DNA of 64,000 nucleotides from Phoronis australis (GCA_002633005.1 NMRA01000224.1:187759-251758); one strand, 5' to 3'; shown: positions 2,928 to 62,708, counted from the stretch's first letter. Translations and numbers: made by a program. Notes: generated from the letters alone by a model not told the origin.

Positions 2928-3677
2928 GAAACGTAACACATGGTATATCAGTCCAGGCTTACTTGGTGAGGGTTATACAACACGAGGTTCTAAAACTAGG
3001 GGAAAATGGGGCAAGGAGGAGTCGCAAGGGGGGGGGGAGATCTGTATACACTTGGCATCAACCAATACTAACATGTATTCAGTATACAAAAGTAAATATA
3101 TAGATATCTATGTTCTTGTTACTTCTCTACTATTCCACAATATTCTTAACATACTTAATACCTTTGATAGTGACACAGATAACTTGGTAAGAAGCTACAA
3201 CATGCCCAACAATTCCACCGTCATATACACTTAACAAACTAAGAACACCTAAATCAAATCATGATTAAACTTGCCCAATGTTCAACAAAGATTTGAAACT
3301 GCTCTATAAATGAGTACCTTGTGAGTATTATGAATCTACACTAATGGTTATGCTCTAGTCAATATATAATTGTGATATTTTTTAATACAATTAAAATTTG
3401 TTCATTACCATCTTTTTTTACTGGCAAGACAGTCTGAAACATGATCAAATTGTTTAAAATGGAAGCTCCAGAGTGAAGATTTGACCTCTGCCCTTTACAC
3501 TTTGACCTAGTACAACATGGCACCAAATACAGGAATCAGCAGAAATATGGCAGCAATAAATAAAATGATTTACAAGACAGCAACATTGATCAAACAAAGA
3601 TAAAGCCAGGTGATCACTATAAAAGACCCAGAAACACAAACAACGTTGAGTATTAGCAAAGAGTGTAGTGTTAAGTT

Positions 3678-4882
3678 TTAGGGGGGTACGTATGGGGGGG
3701 GACTCGGTTGATACGAAGGCTCTGTGCGTGGACGGGGAAGAGTAGAATCTTCACTATTCACGGGGGGGTCGGGAGGATGATACGCTGGCACCAGCGTCTC
3801 GTTTTCCATTTCTAACTCGTCCTCGGGAGGGTCGTCTTCTATAGGTTCTTTGTGGTCTGACGGTGGCGTCGACGGCGTGTTAGATCCCTCGCGGTGATAG
3901 GCAGGCGGTTCCTGCGCGGGTTGCTCATTGTCCATAATAAGTGGTCTGGCCGGAGACTCCGCTTTGTCGTCTAGTTCGTCCGCAAATATAATTGGGATCC
4001 CTTTGTTAACAAACGTGCGTTGTTCTTCCGTCTTCATTTTGCCTTGTCGTCGTTTCCGGTACAACACGCATGCGATAATGCCAGCCAGAAGAAGCAAAGC
4101 TACAATGATGACTGCTGGTAAAACTTTAACAACAAGGTCATCGTCATCACCTTTAGACTCCCCTCCTTTCCCAGGCTTAGCTGTGGTCGGCTCAGGCTCA
4201 GGTTCTGTTCTTGGTATCGGAACAGATGAAACAGGCTCGAATTCCCCTTGGCAAGAACCTTTGGGTTCCAGTGCCAAGGACGACAATTCAAATGGGTGCA
4301 TCATTTCCTTCGCTTCAGGTGTAAATGTGCCATTGGGATACATCAGCTTCTTCAAGAGACCTTCCACGCCTTCGGAGTTGCAGCTATCGCCACCTAGTGA
4401 TGTGTCGGTCCACGAGAGAATAACGGAGCCACGCTTGAGACCAGTGATCTGCAAGTTATTACCATTTTTGTTACCTAACAAATTGCCCAACTTCCTAAGA
4501 AAATCGAGCTGCATGTGGACGTCATTGACAAACGTATCGTAGTCAATATTTAAGGTCATGGTGAACTCATGACTGATGGCCTCTTGCTCACCAGGACGAG
4601 GAGCTAATACCATGATGTCCAGTGCTGTCCTCACTAACGCTTCGCTAGAATCCATTGCTGACACCTTCAGTTGATACAGACCGATATCTTTCTCCATCGG
4701 AAGACCAATTAACTCTTGCTTCTTCGCATTGTATTTTAGCCAAAAGTTCCTTGGTAGTGTTGTACCTTCCAGAGTTGTGACGAGAACGGCAAGTTTGCGA
4801 GTGTTGCCATCCTCGGCATCGATGAAAGTGTCTTTCGGAATTCTGAATCGGAACACGTTCCCGACAGTGGCAGGTATTTGAC
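3678..4882 (-). CDS. DAG1: Dystroglycan terminal exon B (distal): second cadherin-like domain, SEA domain, TM, cytoplasmic tail
   Basis: Acceptor tatttattttcgtag|GT, phase 1, giving RI-G-QIPATVGNVF. Contains FIDAEDGNTRKL, RGSVILSWTD, TM VLPAVIIVALLLLAGIIACVLY, RKRRQGK, KGIPIIFADELD and PPPYVPP*. Predicted precursor 841 aa. Confidence 0.93.
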
Positions 4883-5249
4883 CTACGAAAATAAATATAA
4901 CACATCACCACGTATTATCATTTTTAAAATCAATAATGGTCGGGAAAAAAACAAGGGCCTGACATGGGCTTGAAAGTTCCGACAACTGCAAGCTCTCAAC
5001 TCCAGTTCAAGTATTTCTCATACTTACTTTTGACGCAACGTAGTTTTAGCAGACACACAAATGATTCTAGGTCAAGATATAAAATTTTATTCGAGATGGG
5101 CCTCACTCTTACCAAATTTTCATGAAAACTTGGGTTTTCTCCTCAGACATGCTGGTAATAATTAGAAATGGTAGATGTGAACACAACGGTTGAGTGTGAC
5201 AGCTTGTGTGCAACAAATGTACAAACAAAATGTGTAACTAAATTATATA

Positions 5250-5255
5250 TTTATT
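5250..5255 (-). terminator. Candidate polyadenylation signal for terminal exon A
   Basis: AATAAA on the minus strand followed by a T/GT-rich tract (ttttgtttgtacatttgttg). Other AATAAA hexamers occur at 7263-7268, 5994-5999 and 5086-5091. Confidence 0.4.
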
Positions 5256-7780
5256 GTGAAATGTTTCTATGACATAAGACAGTAGGAATATATGAACTTA
5301 TATAGTAGAACACACAAGAGGTATCGCTTACCAGAAACAGCAGCGATACTTCAGCAAATAATACCGACCAGTTAAAAGGTCAAAAGTCACACCTCATTTT
5401 CCCAAGTATCAGAACATTCCACTAAAGTGGAATTGTTCTTCAGTTAGCTCAAGAAATTGTGACAAGAGAAAAACCAGTTACATTCCACTGAAAAGTCAAA
5501 TTTACCCCATGTTTGTACAAATCAAGTAATGTGGACAAAACATGGTAGAGTTGGTTAGCCATGGACTCATATGCTGTAAATGTAATTCTTATGAAAAATT
5601 TGTTTTTTCTACACTGTATAAATTTAAAGTCCATGCTCAGACACCATTAACAACATCAGAGAAACATTTAAAGGCAGGTTTTACAAGATTTAAAAAACTT
5701 AGTAGAACGAGTATTTAAATCACAGCAAAGACAAGACAACATGTCGACCCATAACTAATTCTAAAGCCTACCAGTCCATCAAAACAAACTACACACTTAG
5801 ACTACTATACTTACATGGCCATAACTTTTTCAACCATTGCTACGAAACAAGACATCGTGCAAAGAAAAACAATGGCTGTTACATTGATAGATACTGAACT
5901 ATCAAACATTGATAGATACTGAACTATCAAACATTGACAGTTTAAGTGAGCTTGGATAGCAGAAATATTGGTACGATAATTGTTACGAATATGTTTATTA
6001 CAATAAACAATTGGACATAACAGAAGAAATGTGCAATCTTTCGACCATATGCAGGAACAAATAATGGGTCCAGGATCTAACTTCTGAACTCAAACTAGAC
6101 TCGACCAATCACCCTGTACAATTGGAGTACAGATTTGCAAGTTTACTCGATGTGTGTCATGCAAATGTATGGTCAGCTTTGGAGTTGAGTTTCGAGAACA
6201 GATATTACATTCCATGCTCTGGGTTATGACCAAGGAGATGCGAACATCTATTAAAAAGGGGTTCATTTTTACCCTATACAGCAATGATGGAGAGGCTGCA
6301 CACTCCACAACAACACAAGATTGGCAAATAATTCAGAAACAACAAACATAATTCAGAGGCGTGCAGACTGATCTGTATTACAACGCCAGTTCAAGATTTA
6401 CATAATTCAGTCTACGATCAATGCAGTCATCTCAGCTACACACCAAAGAATGTATAAAAGCAGTTGAGATACAAACCCAAACATTTGAGTGCCATAAAAT
6501 TCAAAGGATATTTTCTAAATCATTGACCAAGCAGTGTACTATAGCTACATCTCTCACTGAAAGTGGACAATTACATCTGTATATGTCTATAAAACCATGA
6601 ATTTACAATTAAAATTAAAATTAAAATCTCATATAATAAAAGTAAAATAATTTAAATCAACTGTACACCACATGGATGATGAACCAAACATTTAGCTCTC
6701 AGCATCGCAACAAACCTAACACAACATAACCTCTACTTGCAATTTCCATGGCGTTTATCGTTTTCAGTATTACCACGACAATTTCTGAAACTGCTCATTT
6801 TCGGAATTGTTCCCATTAATATAGTTCCCATTTACTCACCTGGATGAGAGCATATTACTTGATGACAAATCCTAAATTAATTGCTGTGCTTTAATGTTCA
6901 TCGTTAGTAAGAAATCACCTCTTTTACAAAAAACATACTGGGTGCATTTTATGCAATTTAAGTTGCTTTCCCTGAAACAACATATAGTGCAGTTAACGTA
7001 AATTCCTAGAAACAAAGAGGTTGCTCTTTTTACCTAAACCACTAGGCAAAAACTAACACCTGACTTACAAAAGCGTTAACGAAGTAGCGACAACTCTCCT
7101 CCATTCAAGAAAAACATAGACTCTCATGCCCATAAAACCAAAACAAGCACGCGATTGAATATCAATAAAGCCGAAAATTTACTGTAACTTGCATAAAAAT
7201 TGACGCAATATTTTCTCAAGAGCAATTGACAAAATATACTGCGTAATATTCAATCCGTGGGCTTTATTTTAATCAAGTTTCCAAGTTTTCTCCACCACTA
7301 GGACGAAGCAAGTCATTTTTTTCTTTCAACTGCAATGTTCGTCCGATGCTGCTCTCTAGCATCACGTGAAGTAATTATGCTAAATGAAGACGCATATTGT
7401 GTAAACGGGTGCGTCGCATTTTACACAACCTTGAAAATTTGTAAGAAATAAAACTGAAAAATATACAACCATCGGTTTCATTTCTTGATTATCTTCCTTT
7501 CATTTCCATTCAAGAAGCACTGAGGTGTGTCTCTGTCAAATATACATTGTTCGTTATTCTGCACTGGAGAAATGATTTTAATCCTCTTTTGATGGACACC
7601 AAGAAATTGAAATTGGACCCCAAAAATTTCGGAAGGCAGAACCAGTGGACCCTGAGTTTGGAATTATGGGGCGAACACTGCAATGACTGTACAATTTGAG
7701 TCTTTAACACCACTAAGTTCAAGTAGTTAATATCATATGGCATAACTAACGGAGCACGTGAACACAATGTAGCTGCCGCA

Positions 7781-8952
7781 TTATGGTGGAACATAAGGCG
7801 GAGGACTAGGCTGATAGGAGGGTTCAGTGCGAGGACGAGACGACCGTGAGCTCTCATCACCCGACGGTGGTCGCGGTGGTTGGTAAAGCCGAGATGACGA
7901 GTCCTCCATTGGTTTGTCCTCCGCTGAGCTGTCAGTGTGGTAGGCGGGTGGTTTCTCAGTCTCCAAGATTAATGGCTTGGTAGCATTCTCCGGCTTCTCA
8001 TCCATCTCATCAGTGAAGATGACAGGAATACCTTTGTTGATAAACGTATTCTGATCTTCATCAGACATCTTGCCTTTTCGTTTCTTGCGGTATAAAATGA
8101 AGGCTATGAGTCCGGCCAGCAACAACATGGCAGCAATCACCACCGCCGGCACCACGGTCACAACCCACTTGTCCTTTTCGTCGCCAGATTTAGACTCCTC
8201 TTCATATCCGGCAGGAGTTGTCATAGCAACGGCAGGAGTTATCATAGCAACGGCAGGAGTTGTCATAGCAACGGCGGGAGCCCATGTCACTGGCTTGAAA
8301 CCCGTCCTATTCTTCATGCAAGCACCTTTGGGTTGCAACGAGACAGACATGATCTCATAGTCACCCATCTTGTCCAACATATTTGCTGTAAAGGTCTTGT
8401 TCACATACATCACCTTTCCAAGCAGATTGGCTATCGCTCGGACTGGACACTGGTCAGAGGTCAAAGAGGAGTTTGTCCAACTGATAATGACCGACCCTTC
8501 TTTTAAACTAGTAATGACCAGTTTACCTGGATCATCTTCGCCAAACACACTCGCCAGTTTCGTCAAGAATTCCAGCTGCATGTGGACGTCATTCATAAAC
8601 GTCTCATAGTCGATATTCAGCCTCATGGCAAACTCAAACGTAGCATCCTTAACTGCGTCACTCTTGCCGGCCTCCTGCACATTGATGTCAAATGGACTCC
8701 TCTCTAACTGTGCATCTTTATCGATTGCCGTCACAAAAAACTGGTACTTCTTCACGTGCCTCTCAAGTGGAAGACCAATAATCTCTTGTCGCTTCTTGTC
8801 GTAAGTCAGCCAGAAATTCTTGGGAAGGGATGTTCCAGCAATGGTGCTTACAGTTAAAAGTAAGTTACGAGTGTCCCCATCTTCCTGATCGTAGAAAAGG
8901 TCTTTCTTGAATTGATAGCGGAACACTTGGCCGACTGTCGCAGTCAACATAC
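7781..8952 (-). CDS. DAG1: Dystroglycan terminal exon A (proximal): second cadherin-like domain, SEA domain, TM, cytoplasmic tail
   Basis: Acceptor cattgtattccag|GT, phase 1, giving RI-G-MLTATVGQVF. Contains FYDQEDGDTRNL, EGSVIISWTN, TM VVPAVVIAAMLLLAGLIAFILY, RKKRKGK, KGIPVIFTDEMD and PPPYVPP*. Predicted precursor 830 aa. Confidence 0.93.
8209..8280. repeat. Coding 21-bp tandem repeat x3 encoding (PAVAMTT)3 in exon A
   Basis: Units of cggcaggagttgtcatagcaa at period 21. Confidence 0.9.
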
Positions 8953-9248
8953 CTGGAATACAATGTAGGTGCAGTGAAGACATTTCGCACATTCAGAAAA
9001 GAAATGCCAGACAAAGGGACTACGAAATAAATTAATTACAAAACAAAGGTACAACATCAAAGCAAGTACAACATGCAAATGACTGGTTTCATATTTTCCA
9101 AACAATCCAAGTAGCCGTGAGGTGTAGAGTTCTCCAAGCACTATCAGAGAAGTGTCAGTCAAGATATCTCAAAAAGTCAAAATCGAGCATTAAAACATTA
9201 GGGGAATGTCATGATCAAAAGCACAAAAATGCCTGGTAGTTCTCATTA

Positions 9249-9411
9249 GCAGTTATAGCAACTGCGGCTGTTGTCATAGCAACAAAGGCCTTGTCATAAC
9301 AACATGAGCCATTGCCATAGCAATTCGGGCCGTGGTCATAGCAACATGGGCCTTTCTTGTAGAAATTTGGGACATTGTCGTCATAGCAACTCGGGTCGTT
9401 GTCATAGCAAT
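9249..9411. repeat. Degenerate ~21-bp intronic repeat, about 7-8 units, sharing its core with the exon A repeat
   Basis: gttgtcatagcaac-like cores at 9270, 9290, 9311, 9332, 9377 and 9398. Confidence 0.8.
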
Positions 9412-10210
9412 TGCGACCGATCAAGGGTAGCAGCGGCACAAGAAAGCATGAGCATGCAATGCCTCGAGCAACTCACCTGGCGATAATACATGACGAGGTT
9501 GTCAAGTGGTAGCAGACGTCCAACATCCAGGCTATAGACCGTCAAGACTGAACACGGCTCTATGGGTAACACTGGGTTAGTTTGGTTGGGGTTCATGAGA
9601 TATCTTTAACAGACACCCTCTGTATGCCTTACACGCCAGACAAGACCATGTTCAGAAAATGCCTCACAGCGTAACTACCATAAGGTAATACGTAGCAAAT
9701 ACCTGGACATGCTCTAACAGCGTCCTGTTATAACAGCCCCAAACAGCGCCGCCTTAAAGTGGTAAAAACACACACATTGGCCATAGTACTTGTCCTGATG
9801 AGTCTCCTTGCTAATGTACTGTTGACGAAAATAGTTTAAGCTTTATTTGCCCAAAACATGCTTTCAGTTCACTACTAGTACCTTCTCACCTAAATTGGCG
9901 AAATTTTAAAGCAAACTTTTCTGGCAAATGTCAAATGATTTATTTTTGTTTCTGATATCTTTTTAAGTTTATTGCACAACATTGACAAATCCAAACAAGT
10001 TTTGATGAAACTCCTCAACTTTTTTGAGAACTACGTATAAAACATGGTATCATTGTAGGTTTTTGAGCAATTTTATAATAATTCATTTACTAAGATAATT
10101 TTTTTAAATGTTCCTGAAACAAGATATGACTGCCGACAATTGAGGTTGTTAAGCAGTGCAAAATGATTATCGTTTCAACAGAAAATTTGCTGTCTAAATA
10201 CATTACTCAT

Positions 10211-10378
10211 CAGGGGTGGATCCAGGATTTTGAGTTAGGGGAGACCAGGGCAGAGTATTAGCCAGGATTTTGCCCATCAGACATTCACACCCCACCCCCT
10301 GAACTGCCAAATGGAATCTGGGAGAAATTTAGAGGGGGCCATGGCCCCCTTGCCCCCCTCCCCTTAAATTCGCCACTG
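10211..10378. mobile_element. Short non-autonomous DNA transposon (MITE-like)
   Basis: Imperfect TIRs caggggtggatcc...aattcgccactg, flanked by the 5-bp direct repeat CTCAT (10206-10210, 10379-10383). A second copy lies at 60335-60608. Confidence 0.75.
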
Positions 10379-10722
10379 CTCATATACTGAATATTTTTAT
10401 GAAGTTAACATTAGCAAGAGGATTCATTAGTAGACATACCATTGGACGCTGGGCGAAAGCAAAAGAAGTGCCTTGAGTATGCTCCCAAACAAACAGGCAC
10501 AACTGATAGTACAATTATTACACTGGTACAGTGTACGTCTGCCACTGTGATGGCTGCTGGTGAGTGAACAAACACAAACACATCCTTTCGTTCATATATT
10601 AAAACCAAATGAGGACGGTCACCATTACTTTCAAATAAAGTGAAGAATTACAACTAATATACAGAATATTCTACTTAGATGTTACACTTAACACTACAGC
10701 TATTAAAACACTAAACAACATC

Positions 10723-11054
10723 TTAAAGTGGCAATAAACCCACATTCACTCCAAGAAGCTAAATTTTGACTTCGACTCCTCCCTGCTGTAAAATTGGTCT
10801 CAACTTGTTCCTTACTCACACGACAAGTAATTTTGGCCTTGCAAAAAACTGAAAGTTCGTTATTCCTTGAGACTAAGACATGCCGTGACAAGTAAAACTG
10901 TGGAGGGTGGTCTTGAGCAATAGTAAACTGACAAGCCCAGAAGTCGCACCTATTTTGACTTGAGAACATTTTCAGTGAAACCAACTTCACAATGTTAAGA
11001 AGTATGAATCAAAAATTGTTTTTGTGATTGAAAGTGGGTTTGCATTCGCTTTAA
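10723..11054. mobile_element. Degenerate TTAA-flanked MITE (Kolobok/piggyBac-like ends)
   Basis: TTAA|AG...CT|TTAA with ~25-bp imperfect TIRs (aaacccacattca versus aaacccactttca). Confidence 0.4.
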
Positions 11055-12667
11055 ACTAATACCAGGGTGTTATCTTAATGCTAGGAGATGAATTTAGATG
11101 ATCTCAACGGAAACACAAACATTGGTTAATATACAGGAATTGTCAAACCACACCCAAAATAACAACAAAGGAAGCAGTTGAACAAAAAATACTTTCTTTA
11201 TCAGTGGTTAGCGCCAAGACTGGGTAGACTAATATCAGTAGCGTATTAGATGAAATGAGTGTTTCACAGTATCATGTAACAAATAAATAATTCAAAAACT
11301 GGTAATTCTAAAATAAAATACGGGGGTTTAATAAGACGGCACCGATTTGAAATTGTGCTATCTCCGATATTATACATTCTGAAGGAGTATACGACAACGT
11401 TCGATTACATAACTGATAGTAAGGCTTGACAACTCATGTAACAAACGTTTTGTATCGGTCCTTTCCAGAGTTTACCGCCATTGGCTTTTATCCGTATGGT
11501 TCTCCCATTAAGGAGACTTTGTAATAAATGTGCTCCATTTCCATTGAGAGACATGCTATCTTCCAGTAAAATACGTGTTTTGTAGGAACCTTGCGTCACT
11601 CGTTATATTTTAAGAAACGAAGTCACACAAAACTTTAGTAGCATTCACAGGTCACAGAACAAATTAAAACAAAATATCTCTTATAATAAGCAACACACTC
11701 TCCAAAGTAGTTGTGAGCCAGTTAGTTACTCAACTAAGAGTGAATAACAAACGGAGAAACAACACACGTTACTGTGAAAATTCCAACATCGTGAACGATA
11801 AAAATTTTCATTTGTAAAAATTGGGTCAGTCCTTGCTTTTGAAACAAATGGAAAATTGCGAAATTAAGTTGAAAGTAATTTATATTGTGAAAGCAAGTTA
11901 ATAGGGAAAGCTTCAATTCTTTTGAATAAAAAATTTCGCCAGTATCAATTCCAGAATTTTAAAAGCGTGTGGAATAGACATGGATGGAAGCGCCAAGACC
12001 AGAATGCACTTCCAGATAAAAACGAAATTATTTCATAGGCAAATTTATGAGAACCATTTTACAGCAAGTTGACCTGCCACTGCATGTTTATGAACTGCCG
12101 ACAAGACAATATAGGTATTTGAATGGCACGAGAAAAAGAAATCCAAATATTATTAAGTAACGTCAGTAAGAAAGCGTAACTCACTCATAAACCAAACAAG
12201 ATAGGGCAGATAAAATTAAATCAATTATCAAACCAACATTCACAGGATGTTTTTTAAAATCTTTGCTATGTCAATAATACCTTTTGTAACTTTTTTAACA
12301 TGGAAAGTTTGAGTTTCAAAATGTTTGTGGCTAGACGCCCTCGCCAACTCGATTTATTCTAATTTGAAGTTTGAAATTTTGACTTGATCTAATTACAGTG
12401 GTACAAGACATTTTCATTTGCGTCATCAGTTCCAATTTCCTGTCGATTTGTAAAGGTGTTGTGCAGTTTTAACTAACTGTGAGAGTAAATTAAGAATGAA
12501 TACCTCTGAAGGGAAATCGTGTAAACTTTACAATTTGATGGCTTTGTAATTTAGTCATCCAACCGCACACCTCACCGAACACATGAATGTGTAGGGATGA
12601 ATACTCACACGCATACTAACACAAACGAGCACACAAATGCACACAAGCAAGAAGACGCGTGACCTAC

Positions 12668-12719
12668 CGATACGATTCTTGACTTTAGGGCCAGTGTTGT
12701 CGCCTGGCTCTGGTTTAGG
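12668..12719 (-). CDS. DAG1: Dystroglycan exon 5 (PKPEPGDNTGPKVKNRI plus 1 nt), last shared exon
   Basis: Not in the ORF track. Strong acceptor tttcccttttctttgttcttctag|CCT and donor G|GTAGGT, 52 nt, phase 0-1. N-x-x-P-x-V-K-N-x-I matches the start of the second cadherin-like domain (vertebrate NQRPELKNHI). Confidence 0.87.
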
Positions 12720-12993
12720 CTAGAAGAACAAAGAAAAGGGAAACTGAGGTCCAGAAAGAACTCTTTTCATCGTGACGAATACCGTATCCATCTTGGTGTG
12801 AACCCGGGGGGGGGGGGCAGAAAGAAGAATGGGTTGATGCATAGGTAGGTTTGTGTTTAATATTCTTGAATGCCGAGACACAAGGCATAGTATACAATGA
12901 CCTAGAATGACAATGAGAACTGTGCTTAGTCCAACACAATCTTGACATTAACGCATACAGTAGGAACCTGTTTCCTGTGGCAACCTGACACTC

Positions 12994-13544: not shown

Positions 13545-13745
13545 CGTAGTGGCTCTGGTGGGTTTGGTTGGTCGAGTGGGTCGTGTGGGTCGTGTGGGCA
13601 TCTTGGGCGTTCTCCGTGTGGTGGGTTCAGGTTCCGGCGTCATACGGGGGGTGGTGGGCATCACTTTGGGTGTTGGCTTCACCGTGACAACGACATCGGC
13701 TGTTCTCATGGGAGTCGGCTGTGCTGTTGGCATGACAACTGGAGC
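13545..13745 (-). CDS. DAG1: Dystroglycan mucin-region exon 4 (Pro/Thr/Arg-rich, 67 codons)
   Basis: Acceptor gttaattccag|GCT and donor ACG|GTATGA, 201 nt, phase 0-0. Translation APVVMPTAQPTP...TRPTRPTRPTKPTRATT is mucin-like. Confidence 0.85.
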
Positions 13746-14213: not shown

Positions 14214-14282
14214 CTTAGATGACATTTCAGGGGCGACTGTCGTCATTACTTGAACTCTTGTAGGCCGGATGGGCCCAATTGC
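14214..14282 (-). CDS. DAG1: Dystroglycan mucin-region exon 3 (AIGPIRPTRVQVMTTVAPEMSSK)
   Basis: Acceptor ttccttaccgcag|GCA and donor AAG|GTAAGC, 69 nt, phase 0-0. IGPIRPTRV resembles LGPIQPTRV in the vertebrate mucin domain. Confidence 0.82.
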
Positions 14283-15541: not shown

Positions 15542-16258
15542 CGATTTTGTTCTGTCCACATCCATAGTGGGCACTACGGCTTTGGTAGGTGGCACCTGAG
15601 GCCCGATGGGCGTGGCTGTGGCCTGGATCTGACGTTTCAGCCTCCTCGTGGGTTTCACCAATTTATTGCTGGTCACGTGCCATCCCAAAATATTGTGTCC
15701 GATGGCGGCCGACATGGCGCCGTTCTGAGCCTTGGACTCCACATCTTCTAGGATCTTTAGGTGATCTTTGTGCACTGACCCGCATCCGATAGTCCAGGAT
15801 ATAAATGCTCCAGGGTGTTTTGGTTTCATAGCATCCCCTCGTCCTGCCACAATAGCCGTCTTATCAAAAAGAGGCTTATTTCCCACAGGTAACATTGTTA
15901 AGAAGTCTTCCGTCAGTTTCAGATGTTTCACCATCTTACTTATAAGGTCAACTTTGCTTGATGGTAACAGCTTATTAAGATCAGTGTCTACCACAACTGT
16001 AACCATGGTGACAGCCTCATTAGGCTGACACGTGATTGGCTGCAGCGTGTTAGCACTAGGATTGTCTTGCTGGGATTGGCGGGTTCTCTCCACCACACTA
16101 ATACTGAAGACATCTTGTGCCCGCCCCCCTGTGCCATCTGCCCTGACCTGAATGTAGTACTCCCCCAGATCCTGATGACTAGGGACACCTGAGAGTGTGT
16201 GAGTTTTCCCATCATACATCAACCAAGATGGCAACTGGTCACCATTTCCCTCCGTAAC
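15542..16258 (-). CDS. DAG1: Dystroglycan coding exon 2 (rest of Ig-like domain, S6-like domain, furin site, start of mucin region), 239 codons
   Basis: Acceptor ttttgtttcag|GTT and donor TCG|GTAAGT, 717 nt, phase 0-0. Motifs LPSWL..D, GVPSHQDLGEYYIQV, SWTIGCG, IGHNILGWHV and RRLKRQIQATATP match alpha-dystroglycan. Confidence 0.95.
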
Positions 16259-22596: not shown

Positions 22597-22878
22597 CGTG
22601 AGTTGACGCACATCGCCTTTGAATGTGTCTGATGGGATTATGAACTTGAACACTTTACCAACAACTGCTTGTCTGTCCTTGAGAGCATTCTGCAGCACGA
22701 TCTGAGGTTTGATGGCGTCGCCCTTTGGTTGGTCAGCAGAACTAACAAGTTGTTCAATGTCACTGGTCACAGCACCAGCCGTGCACAAGCACAAACACAG
22801 TATTGCCATTAACACTAGCACAGTCTGTTTCTGCAACTCCGTCCTATTGAAGCCACACCTCTTGGTATCGGCAGCCAT
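22597..22878 (-). CDS. DAG1: Dystroglycan coding exon 1 (signal peptide and start of N-terminal Ig/cadherin-like domain), 94 codons
   Basis: ATG at 22878 with an upstream in-frame stop. Hydrophobic signal VLVLMAILCLCLCTAGA, then LKDRQAVVGKVFKFIIPSDTF resembling dystroglycan domain 1. Donor ACG|GTGAGT at 22597/22596, phase 0. Acceptor tcttgcag| places the exon start at 22949. Confidence 0.88.
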
Positions 22879-56500: not shown

Positions 56501-56727
56501 TTTATTTACAAATTGTTTCAGAAAATCTTTTCCTGATTATAATTGTGCACACAGTTCTCCAGGAAGTCACAAGGTGGCACTTGCTACAAATTTAAATATT
56601 CACGGTTTTAATGAGACATAGCATCTTTAAAGTTTGGATTTTACTTGGTATGTCATGACGATTAAAATAACGATCAAAATGTTGATTAAAACATCCATGC
56701 AAACAGGTCTAGTGAAACAACCAGCTT

Positions 56728-58224
56728 GTGATATCTTGTAGGCATGTTAGGACGCTATCTTGGAAACTTAAAACCCGACCGCCAGGCGTTGTGAAGGGCC
56801 AAAGTTGGAAAAGCGCACACTATATAGCACACTATATAGCGTTAGGCAGAAAAAGGACAAACAGTGACTTCACTTTACTAACCCCTTCAATCCTGCTGCA
56901 GGTTCTAGATGACCACCCATCTCAAGCAAGCACAACTGAAGACAGCGTGTGCCAAGATGCACATACTCAATACAGGCTTCAGCAATACCATCAAAATATA
57001 TTCGACATCCAAAAAAGTCACCTGGCAACCAGTGACATTGACAAGTACCGGGACAGTGACATTTATAAAGAATCGTTATTGGTATTCAATCCTTTGGGAG
57101 AAAATGGACTAACCACAGGAAGTGTGATAACACAACAGATGATGAACGACATGAATGATGACGAGATAAATATCTCTGCGGTCAACGGTATTCGAAATCA
57201 CAGAATTACGTCAAAGAACGAACCAGAAACATGCAGACTTAGAGAACAGGAACAACCAGCGCCACCTGAAAACATCACTAGCAACTGCGAAAGTACAGAC
57301 AGTGAGGACTTCAAAAAGAAAATGAGCACTGAACTTCATGAACAGAATACAGAAAGAGAAACTTCAAGAAACAAATCGTTCCAAGAACTTCATTTAGTTG
57401 AGTTAGAAGCCAAAACAAGTTGTGATGAAGCAATAGTGCAGGAAAATGTAACGGAAGTCACACACATGAAATCAGCTACAGAGGAGGAAGTCTTATTAAT
57501 GACAACCAATGACACGGGCGCAGTGTTGGCTAATGACAGTGAAGCTGGAGGCAAGCTGGACAACTACACGCAGCCTGAGCAGACAGGTAGCGACCCCTGT
57601 TGGACAATGGATGAAGTGAGCCAAGAGAATACAAACAACTCCAGGCGATCAGCAGAGTCAAAGATGAAACAAATCACAAATACTGACGTACAACAAAAAT
57701 TTACCAAACGAGTTAATACCAACAGGAACTGTACAACGTATAGTGAAAATCCGATAAAATGGCAAACTTCTATGAAGCCTACAAAGAAGCGAACTATTAC
57801 CAAAAGAGTTGACAAGAAAGACTGGCAGACTACAACGAATGAAGAAACTTTGACATGTGAAGAATCCCAAGTCAATGAAAGTCACAGGCCCACTGCAAAA
57901 ACAAATAGTTCCCAGAATGTCGACCTCAACAAATTGCCCAATGCAATGCGAAACAAGACCATGTTAAATAATGATGTGGAAAATCGAGGCAAGAAACTCT
58001 ATGAACTAAGACAGAGTCACACCTGGCGACTGCCCAAGATTGCTGCGCGTACAGCCAGATGTCAGCAAGAATGGCACCGAGGTGAGACGGGGTCAGAGCA
58101 CAGCAGTCGGCTGGCCGTTCGCTTGCAATGGGAAATGGAAAAACTCTCAGTCTTGGCAAAAACAGCTACTGCAGTCTACCCAGACATAAATGAATATGAT
58201 AATGGACGTGACTCATCTAATTAA
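56728..58224 (+). CDS. Unidentified long ORF (498 codons; probable exon from 56902), rich in T/E/N/S/K/Q and likely disordered
   Basis: 1.5 kb without a stop in AT-rich DNA and not a tandem repeat. TACTAAC (56876-56882), a pyrimidine tract and CAG| at 56901 form an in-frame acceptor. No domain recognised. Confidence 0.45.
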   Translation: MISCRHVRTLSWKLKTRPPGVVKGQSWKSAHYIAHYIALGRKRTNSDFTLLTPSILLQVLDDHPSQASTTEDSVCQDAHTQYRLQQYHQNIFDIQKSHLATSDIDKYRDSDIYKESLLVFNPLGENGLTTGSVITQQMMNDMNDDEINISAVNGIRNHRITSKNEPETCRLREQEQPAPPENITSNCESTDSEDFKKKMSTELHEQNTERETSRNKSFQELHLVELEAKTSCDEAIVQENVTEVTHMKSATEEEVLLMTTNDTGAVLANDSEAGGKLDNYTQPEQTGSDPCWTMDEVSQENTNNSRRSAESKMKQITNTDVQQKFTKRVNTNRNCTTYSENPIKWQTSMKPTKKRTITKRVDKKDWQTTTNEETLTCEESQVNESHRPTAKTNSSQNVDLNKLPNAMRNKTMLNNDVENRGKKLYELRQSHTWRLPKIAARTARCQQEWHRGETGSEHSSRLAVRLQWEMEKLSVLAKTATAVYPDINEYDNGRDSSN

Positions 58225-60334: not shown

Positions 60335-60608
60335 CGGGCGGATCCAGGAATTTGAGTTAGGGAGTGCCAGGGCAGAGTGTTAGCCAGGATTTTGAGTTAG
60401 GGAGGGCCAGGGCAGAGTATTAGCCAGGATTTTGAGTTAGGGAGGGCCAGGGCAGAGTATTAGCCAGGATTTTGAGTTAGGGAGGGCCAGGGCAGAGTAT
60501 TAGCCAGGATTTTGCCCGTCAGACATTCGCACCCCCAACTGCCAAATGGAATCTGGGAGAATTTTAGGGGGGCCATGGCCCCTTGGCCCCCCTCTAAATC
60601 CGCCACTG
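60335..60608. mobile_element. Second copy of the 10211 MITE with its internal 40-bp unit expanded to 4 copies
   Basis: ccaggattttgagttagggagggccagggcagagtattag x4, then the same 3' part ending aaatccgccactg. Confidence 0.8.
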
Positions 60609-62708
60609 CAAATAGAGCTTTACCGATTCACCAAATTCTTTCATATTTCACCAATTCTTAAATTCCAAATAAAATACTAGGACTGTTTTCTCAGGTGTTC
60701 CTGCCAGTCAACTGCATTTCTGTGCAAATATGACTTTGGCAAAGTTTCCAGTCTCCCAGAAAATATCGCTGTACTAAAACAATGGGAAACACACAAGGTA
60801 GATGTTCATTTCAATGTGGAAGTTGTGAAAACTTGCTCATGGTTGGGCATGCTACATTCTGATGCGAGTTTAGAGATGAAAGGACCACAAACATTGTTGT
60901 GGACAGGAAAACTAAGCTACATTTAAATTATTCATTCTTTACAAAACTGAAATCAATTTGTATTTCGACATTCAGTCATAAACTGCAATAGTAGATATGT
61001 CCAGTCTAATAATGGCATAACACTTGAAGTCAACAGAAAAAAATGACCAACAGAAATGTCCAACCACCTGTGAAAAGGCTAGAGGTTGGTGTAAACAACA
61101 AATAGACTAATACACAATGTTATACATCACCACCTCCATCAAAGCAATGCTATTTAAATGCCCAGGTTAAAGGAGTACTTGGGTAGTCAGGTGTGCTACA
61201 TTAAGACATATATTCCATTGCGAAACGAGAACAAATTGAGCTGAAGTCAACTGAAAAAGCGAGCTTTGCTTATTTGCTATCTTTTAGTTTTACCCACATG
61301 GCACATTGAATCCCTGTTTTGACATGTTACTTGTCATACACTGCTCGCTGGCTGGGCTTAATTTCAAAAGGAGTTGGATTGTGAAAAATCCCTTGTCTAA
61401 GCAGCTCATCCTTTATGTTCTACCTAAGTATGTACCCCAACTCTCTCCTGTGACAACATCAAAGATCTTGCCCCTAGCCAAGGCGAGGGGGTAAAACTGA
61501 GTGCAAATCAGACGCCTCAAAGCCTGGAACTCCGGCCCAGAAAACAAGAAACTTCTCAGGCCAATGCCCAAAGATGATAAAAGGCACAAAAGAATCTATT
61601 GCATCAATACTCAATTTCATAAGTCACCGATTCGGTGAGGATGATTAGCTCCTTCAATGAACTTCTTGTCATAGAAGCAGCCAAGGCGACGCTTCGAGCG
61701 CTGGTCTGAAAAGTAATCATAATCGTCTCGTCGATGGAGTCGCGGACGAACACATGGTCATTCTCGTAGTCATTTTAAGAATTCTTCAACACAAGTCTAA
61801 TCGTATTTGGTATGAACAGGGACCAAATATCACAATTTTACTCGTAGTGACCGTAAAATGTTGTTCTTGGGAACAACAGAAGCAAAAACCACCACCTTCT
61901 TACCTGGCTTTCTTCTGCACTCAAAGCTTCCTCAAATCACGTGACCTAGTTTACCTGTGACTGGTCACGCTCACAGTGGTTTAATCAGAAACTACATATC
62001 GGGGATTTACCGGGCAGCAGGTTTCGGTGGGGGAGCAGCTCGTGGCATAGGCAATTACACCTCCCTGAATGCCCCAGGCATATAGGCAAACGAGGACCAG
62101 CGTGTTTGTCTATTCATTGTAGCGCAGTCATTTGCAATAGAAAAACCTAACCTTCAGCATAGGTGATTTTACACAACATGTACGGCTAGAAAGTAGCATG
62201 CCGATCGATGTAAAACCCAAAACCATTATTCCTAATAAAAGGCCCATATTAGTCGGTATAGCTTCAACAAAAAGGTCATTCCGTTCGGCCACGGTCATTC
62301 TGTAAGGTGTTGAGCCTTAAAGTAGCTTATTTACTGAATTGTTGAATAAAAAATCATTTGGGTTTTAATCGTTTTAGAGAATACAACAAACATAAATCAA
62401 TGGAACATAGTAATACTCTCGTTCAGAAGAAATCTGTTGCAAAAATGGATCTCTTTATTAATCTAAACCCTTCGAACTCTTTTGCAAACCTCTATCAGTT
62501 GCAATCTCTATTCCTTTTTTCCTACTAATGCGAAAGTCAAGAAAAACGCAAATTAAGCATTGGCTTTAAAAATCCCAGTCTTATTTGTATGGGTTCCAAT
62601 ACTGTGCATGCAAGTCTGGTCACAGTTAAAAACTCATGCGGAATGACTGGTCGGATTTATACTAATCTCTTACATGTAATACTCTATGCACGAGAAGCTG
62701 TCACCAAG

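Follow-up and report, generated by a model that had tools for sequence, protein, structure and literature searches.

Dystroglycan is a cell-to-matrix anchor behind some human muscular dystrophies, and one review singles it out as the one member of the dystrophin complex not to have diversified in the way of the others (PMC10293626). The chordate, mollusc, and annelid genes surveyed to date have one intron in the coding sequence (CDS) and one large 3′ exon, and that 35-species survey states that the repeated IG2-SEA module of dystroglycan is never an exon of its own (PMC5216574). Here we describe a minus-strand dystroglycan gene in a 64,000-nt stretch of the Phoronis australis genome (NMRA01000224.1:187759-251758, hereafter the window, within which all positions are counted) whose exon 5 is spliced to either of two homologous last exons, A and B. 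The gene is an RNA-supported counterexample to that survey and represents a third way of varying dystroglycan, beside whole-gene duplication and in-protein repeats.

Comparison with described dystroglycans places the locus among familiar features in an unfamiliar arrangement. With DAG1 of vertebrates and lophotrochozoans, it shares domain order, motifs, the Pfam families DAG1 and a_DG1_N2, alignment to the solved chains 8yt8_O, 9c3c_A/B, and 8uf4_A/B, and a first coding intron inside IG1, but the Phoronis gene has four more introns, one of them just before IG2, and two alternative 3′ exons. The tandem IG2_MAT_NU dystroglycans of arthropods, hemichordates, Trichoplax, and Nematostella also contain a duplicated module, whereas the Phoronis copy includes the transmembrane (TM) segment and tail, forms one exon, and is used as an alternative. 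Teleosts and lamprey likewise have two diverged β-dystroglycans in one animal; those are whole-gene duplicates (dag1a and dag1b) with separate promoters and N termini (PMC5216574), whereas the Phoronis pair shares one 5′ half. Alternative splicing of Drosophila Dg, which is regulated by cell type (PMC3245913), skips a mucin-region exon, whereas Phoronis keeps the mucin region common to both products and swaps the membrane-proximal half for a homologue.

The mechanism class, duplicated 3′ coding exons chosen together with alternative polyadenylation, is already known from human NECTIN2, GNAO1, and MASP1 and from Drosophila PGRP-LC and pipe. In NECTIN2, the exchanged part is the TM region and tail of an adhesion receptor, which are homologous between the alternatives (PMC8373072, PMC6191721). 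Clusters of 3′ cassettes are found in PGRP-LC and pipe (PMC6191721), and 77 of 236 human tandem exon duplication substitutions are C-terminal, the homologous regions ranging from 8 to just over 250 residues (PMC8373072). The Phoronis locus shares with this class homologous tandem 3′ exons on one strand, of lineage-internal origin, and one donor spliced in frame to either. It departs from the human catalogue in that 389–400 residues are exchanged in a single exon covering both sides of a predicted self-cleaving subunit interface. The swap is unusually large for its kind, in what is so far one invertebrate using a known splicing mechanism. Our literature searches aimed at alternative last exons in dystroglycan, with subscription papers largely outside their coverage, found no report of them.

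We put at roughly 85% the probability that this is one dystroglycan gene with two functional isoforms, made through two old tandem copies of the last exon that are joined to the same exon-5 donor. By every sequence feature that could be tested, the gene is dystroglycan. Exon 2 matches a_DG1_N2, the α-dystroglycan N-terminal family, and Ig (E 2.8e-06) in a Pfam search, accounting for IG1 and S6, and its translation continues through a furin-like RRLKRQ and two Thr (motifs as defined in PMC4582122) into the Pro/Thr-rich, mucin-like region of exons 2–5. Both A and B match Pfam DAG1 and carry the Gly-Ser (G/S) site, Cys pair, TM segment, and PPPY (PPxY) end, each in the intact open frame that the first-pass annotation of this stretch had described. 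Cleavage into α and β chains, matriglycan addition, and binding to laminin and dystrophin would be expected of the protein from these motifs.

The five shared exons total 1321 nt, and the spliced frames are open with one terminal stop each, encoding 830 aa for exons 1–5 plus A and 841 aa for exons 1–5 plus B. A GT donor follows exon 5 in phase 1, and AG acceptors precede both 8952 (A) and 4882 (B), as had been read from the sequence at the outset. A tblastn search of the shared N-terminal part against the whole window found no second copy of the 5′ exons, the extra hits with E<1 being only IG1-versus-IG2 cross-matches; the first-pass annotation had likewise found no such set between the two ends.

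To follow splicing, we used three stranded RNA-seq runs of one study (X2, X3, and X4; 18–19% of each run read) and a contig set (X1), mapped on 3000–12950. Reads joining exon 5 to B numbered 44 in X2, 25 in X3, and 15 in X4, together with one X1 contig, and reads joining exon 5 to A numbered 0, 2, and 11, those in X4 having 9 start places. Both junctions by which the first-pass annotation had proposed to check alternative last-exon choice, 12668 to 8952 and 12668 to 4882, are therefore observed. On remapping over 7700–9200, 16 reads of X4 were seen to leave A at 8953 and to continue with 30 of 30 exon-5 letters; the median loose length of 64 nt exceeds the 52 nt of exon 5, so these reads continue into further upstream sequence. 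Every listed joint into B comes from exon 5, so the refuting outcome in which B would be transcribed from a promoter or upstream exons of its own was not encountered. RNA depth is 2–16 over A and its untranslated region (UTR) to about 5320, 0.13–0.46 at 4992–5323, and 24–66 in B. Each exon has its own stop, a coverage gap lies between them, and an AATAAA, a likely poly(A) signal of A, stands at 5255; the mapped stretch ends within the 3′ UTR of B. One donor, two acceptors, and separate RNA extents are evident in these data, and B is the major form in all three raw-read runs.

The same joints bear on the possibility that the two modules are for the most part combined in a single polypeptide, exon 5 being followed by part of A and then by B, as in the tandem IG2-SEA repeat of arthropods and hemichordates. 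Such proteins are common among our best protein hits and in print (PMC4582122). However, none of the 12 joints listed in the four runs leads from A to B, the remapping lists none inside A, and A has its own TM segment, tail, stop, and long UTR, so that two modules before a single TM segment are not what we find here; we regard this arrangement as extremely improbable.

Hardly more probable is that A and B end two paralogous genes, in the manner of teleost dag1a and dag1b, with the second 5′ set collapsed or missing in the assembly, or that they are alleles stacked by misassembly. Our view is confined to the window, which reaches 3.7 kb past the stop of B, rather than the whole genome; whole-gene duplicates are known in teleosts and lamprey (PMC5216574); and there is an assembly flaw nearby, downstream of exon B, where a 546-nt stretch occurs twice (1284–2361, 98.5% identical) flanking a single N at 1816, likely an artefact of an assembly join. 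Against two genes, the A reads carry exon-5 letters at an agreement of 1.0, whereas the 5′ exons of two paralogues of the age of A and B would differ. Against stacked alleles, the A and B proteins are identical at 196 of 415 aligned columns (47%), far beyond allelic divergence, and X3 carries two alleles of each exon, seen for A at 7889 (4 of 6 reads) and for B at 4743 (45 of 88). Stranded reads cover the DNA between A and B as the UTR of A, and both exons match reads at 99% or better, which gives no sign of the misassembly that had been named as an outcome fatal to the proposal. No indels in A are listed in the four runs.

Each last exon encodes IG2, a whole SEA domain with its G/S site, the Cys pair, a stalk, a TM segment, and a tail. 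The Cys pair, the counterpart of human Cys669/Cys713, is at exon residues 168/211 in A and 167/210 in B, and across 46 aligned sequences neither C168 nor C211 of A varies. The structure that AlphaFold predicts for A from a 46-row alignment has a predicted local distance difference test (pLDDT) score of at least 90 in most 10-residue blocks of residues 1–210 and a TM helix at 258–293, and its best Foldseek match is the dystroglycan in 8yt8; exon A is thus predicted to fold as Ig, SEA, and a TM helix.

Alignment to solved structures indicates how much of the protein is exchanged. Exon residues 2–151 align with α-dystroglycan chains (8uf4_A, 9c3c_A) and residues 152 onward with β chains (9c3c_B, 8uf4_B), so about 150 C-terminal α residues, comprising IG2 and half of SEA, would be swapped as well. 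The α chains of the two predicted isoforms therefore have in common IG1, S6, the furin site, and the mucin region, and the claim that the same ligand-binding α chain is kept stands for these parts, which include the region where matriglycan is attached in human (PMC4582122), and fails for the rest. Likewise, the claim that the whole membrane anchor and signaling subunit is exchanged needs correction: A and B do not differ in their last 17 residues, within which the dystrophin-binding site of 15 residues lies (PMC4582122), and by sequence this predicted end is not swapped.

Identity between A and B varies along the module, with 47 of 95 positions alike in IG2, 31 of 56 in the α half of SEA, 26 of 62 in the β half, 14 of 35 in the stalk, 18 of 27 in the TM segment, and 60 of 99 in the tail. 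The tail of A is 24 residues shorter (103 versus 127) and lacks segments that B has in common with relatives; because B retains these, A looks like the more altered copy of the two. Four N-glycan sequons occur in A. Two fall within or beside the β ectodomain, where B has one. The sequon at Asn214 of A, three residues past the second Cys, is placed like the human metalloprotease site, H715-L716, which follows C713 (bioRxiv 10.1101/2022.04.04.487063). An array related to the minisatellite that encodes the Thr-rich stalk repeat of A, and more decayed than it, occupies 9255–9410 in the intron, 1 kb upstream. One X1 contig passes directly from 8238 to 8281 and is two in-frame units (42 nt) short, reflecting either a length allele or contig collapse.

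We next considered the age of the pair. Trees were built on rows picked out of 309 proteins so as to represent named lineages as well as the nearest hits without a name. In them, A and B form a clade, with a Shimodaira–Hasegawa-like approximate likelihood ratio test (SH-aLRT) value of 99 among 45 rows and support of 100/99 among 32 rows. By this sequence evidence, they are each other's closest relatives and were duplicated within the lineage. The 32-row tree places the pair weakly beside molluscs (83/71), and branch lengths are alike (0.63 for A, 0.67 for B). The UTRs of the two exons are unrelated by blastn. Silent sites are saturated, with 28 of 90 four-fold sites alike and dN of 0.43 and dS of 3.2 by NG86 (0.44 and 1.7 by LWL85), giving a ratio of nonsynonymous to synonymous divergence (dN/dS) of about 0.14–0.25. 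Over the last 17 codons, the third position differs in 14 without any change of residue, and no exact nucleotide match exceeds 20 nt, which points to selection on both copies and not to recent gene conversion. At the stop frequency of intronic sequence, the chance of a 389-codon open frame is about 1.6e-10. The variants listed in A comprise 3 silent and 2 replacement changes and those in B at least 7 silent and at least 4 replacement, with no stop or frameshift among them.

Several observations weigh against two functional isoforms. A is the minor form, with 13 junction reads overall, found in two of three raw-read runs of a single study read to the fraction given above. X2 has no A junction, and reads in that run cross the acceptor of A without splicing and continue into the intron beyond (8975–9076, depth about 6), so part of the A signal is unspliced RNA. 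The joins among exons 1–5 are predicted from sequence; of the 2256 nt of one X1 contig, 910 lie on B and the remaining 1346 fit the 1321-nt shared CDS, a length in keeping with those joins. The five variants listed in A, two of them replacements, are too few for a polymorphism-based selection test, and the protein searches found no relative above 45% identity against which conservation of the pair might be judged.

Exon A could accordingly be a leftover of the duplication, spliced at a low level without a useful protein, leaving B as the sole working end. Its share of 13 in 97 junction reads, with none in X2, the unspliced X2 reads across its acceptor, its uptake of a minisatellite, and the missing tail segments would all suit such a relic. 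This reading sits poorly with 389 codons remaining open despite saturated silent sites, with the low dN/dS, with an end kept identical through 14 third-position changes, and with a conserved Cys pair, G/S site, and fold. In addition, A accounts for 11 of 26 junction reads in X4, the inserted repeat is a multiple of three in length, and the two branches are alike in length. We therefore judge a nonfunctional A to be improbable, though less remote than the two explanations discussed above. That two proteins are made from the gene is likely, the purifying selection being indirect support.

Searches for the same arrangement elsewhere returned little. Among 152 dystroglycans with both halves (of the 309 proteins), a screen of 11,476 pairs, limited by clustering of the proteins at 50% or 90% identity and by best-hit cut-offs, gave no convincing same-pattern pair. 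The candidate P0002/P0019, with a shared N terminus and different C terminus (0.62 versus 0.11 shared 7-mers), was read as separate genes, as both look like single long open frames with both halves. Of 221 pattern matches in metagenome contigs, none was confirmed. Separately, P0002 has an extra lone IG2-like domain, with no second SEA, before its main module (residues 423–520 and 549–937); its N terminus is near that of P0019, and the C-terminal halves diverge more. P0181–P0184 and similar sequences are giant proteins of 4,900–6,600 residues, in which the IG2 or IG2-SEA portion of the exon is matched by 16–35 repeats.

The share of A differs among runs by Fisher's test on reads, which are not independent molecules (X4 versus X2, p = 3.6e-6; X4 versus X3, 0.004; X3 versus X2, 0.14). 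A further point against a simple reading of these ratios is that X4 is without alleles found in X2 and X3 (4743, 7889), confounding genotype with the A/B ratio, and the sample tissues are not given. Whether the choice is regulated by tissue or stage is, on this basis, about an even call. Acceptor strength does not clearly explain the bias to B, with 13 of 20 pyrimidines in both acceptors and 7 T in A against 12 in B. A search for docking and selector pairing in the introns found only imperfect 16–30-nt inverted matches among the longest 25 of 39 pairs, none convincing.

A plausible history begins with an intron gained just before IG2, which would have turned the membrane-proximal half into a self-contained exon. 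That exon would then have been duplicated with its acceptor, stop, and 3′ end after the lineage split from all sampled relatives, with both copies retained. In the present gene, the proximal acceptor of A, with cleavage at the poly(A) signal at 5255, may compete with skipping to B. Both precursors would self-cleave at Gly-Ser and bind dystrophin through the identical end; they would have the N-terminal domain and mucin region in common and differ in IG2-SEA module, stalk, membrane segment, and tail, and hence in the α/β interface, the stalk, and the mid-tail, the whole tail of A being 24 residues shorter. Shedding of human dystroglycan is controlled in this region (bioRxiv 10.1101/2022.04.04.487063), and A may be shed less, given that one of its sequons neighbors the place of the human metalloprotease site and that its stalk carries the Thr-rich repeat. 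We hold only tentatively, and on balance doubt, the stronger proposal of a tissue- or stage-regulated switch combined with a real functional difference of this kind, such as A being protected from metalloprotease shedding.

Alternatively, both ends may make an equivalent protein, the pair being retained for different 3′ UTRs that act on stability, localization, or microRNA control. The identical dystrophin-binding end, the same domain set, and the unrelated UTRs fit this idea, and a Drosophila paper listed as a reference in PMC6191721 describes, by its title, how Dg is controlled by means of an alternative 3′ UTR. Roughly one residue in two is different, however, with the differences clustered in the stalk and β ectodomain. 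We consider the UTR explanation unlikely, with a better claim than any other alternative weighed here; it is compatible with one gene making two isoforms and differs only in why both ends were kept.

If the stronger proposal of a regulated switch with a functional difference is right, one animal would have two functionally different dystroglycan complexes, with the same glycosylated head and dystrophin anchor and different self-cleaving modules. It would then be the first case of splicing that exchanges the α/β module of a dystroglycan, and would offer a natural chimera in which to ask what is tuned by the membrane-proximal half. With head and dystrophin-binding end constant, the pair suggests that the SEA module, stalk, and mid-tail are the tunable parts.

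Table 1. Coordinates of the P. australis dystroglycan gene within the window
Feature	Position	Strand	Basis
Shared coding exon 1: ATG, hydrophobic signal-peptide-like stretch, first half of IG1	22597..22878	-	Open frame, GT donor; exon 1–2 junction predicted
Shared coding exon 2: remainder of IG1, S6 domain, furin-like RRLKRQ, then Thr pair	15542..16258	-	Pfam a_DG1_N2 E 9.4e-28; translation
Shared coding exon 3: mucin-like, 69 nt, phase 0-0	14214..14282	-	AG/GT ends, open frame; inferred from sequence
Shared coding exon 4: mucin-like, 201 nt, phase 0-0	13545..13745	-	AG/GT ends, open frame; inferred from sequence
Shared coding exon 5: 52 nt, phase-1 donor joined to A or B	12668..12719	-	Junction reads to both exons
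Alternative last exon A, coding part: IG2, SEA, stalk, TM, 103-aa tail (minor isoform)	7781..8952	-	Pfam DAG1 E 1.7e-50; junction reads 0, 2, 11; 16 loose ends with exon-5 letters in X4; AlphaFold mean pLDDT 78.5; Foldseek 8yt8_O E 1.2e-25
Predicted α/β cleavage Gly-Ser of A, exon residues 152-153	8492..8497	-	Motif; aligns with start of β chain 9c3c_B
Thr-rich repeat in juxtamembrane stalk of A: in-frame 21-nt minisatellite, 3.4 copies	8209..8280	-	Tandem Repeats Finder (TRF)
Last 17 codons and stop of A: predicted dystrophin-binding end, protein identical to B	7781..7834	-	14/17 third positions differ from B, no residue change
3′ UTR of A, about 2.5 kb, lower end approximate	5230..7780	-	Stranded depth 4-16 in bins 5324-7647, then 0.13-0.46 in bin 4992-5323
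Likely poly(A) signal of A: AATAAA, then U/GU-rich stretch	5250..5255	-	Sequence, at place where coverage ends
Alternative last exon B, coding part: IG2, SEA, stalk, TM, 127-aa tail (major isoform)	3678..4882	-	Pfam DAG1 E 7.8e-59; junction reads 44, 25, 15, and one contig
Predicted α/β cleavage Gly-Ser of B, exon residues 151-152	4425..4430	-	Motif; α chains align to 2-151, β chains from 152
Start of 3′ UTR of B, running on below 3000	3000..3677	-	Depth 36-58 to edge of read-mapped stretch

Some further observations concern the reads and the remainder of the window. At the first base of exon B (4882), 8 of the 44 X2 junction reads carry another letter (two letters, in 5 and 3 reads) and the other 36 are clean; none do so in X3 or X4. 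Intron 5 contains a dispersed repeat at 10210–10380 and 10785–10820 that attracts many reads of both strands, with more copies at 60336–60609. Strand skews across 23000–62000 have the same sign as inside the dystroglycan gene, which would fit a long 5′ noncoding intron. On the strand opposite to the gene, 56716–58224 (+) holds a 502-codon open frame of low complexity with no Pfam hit.

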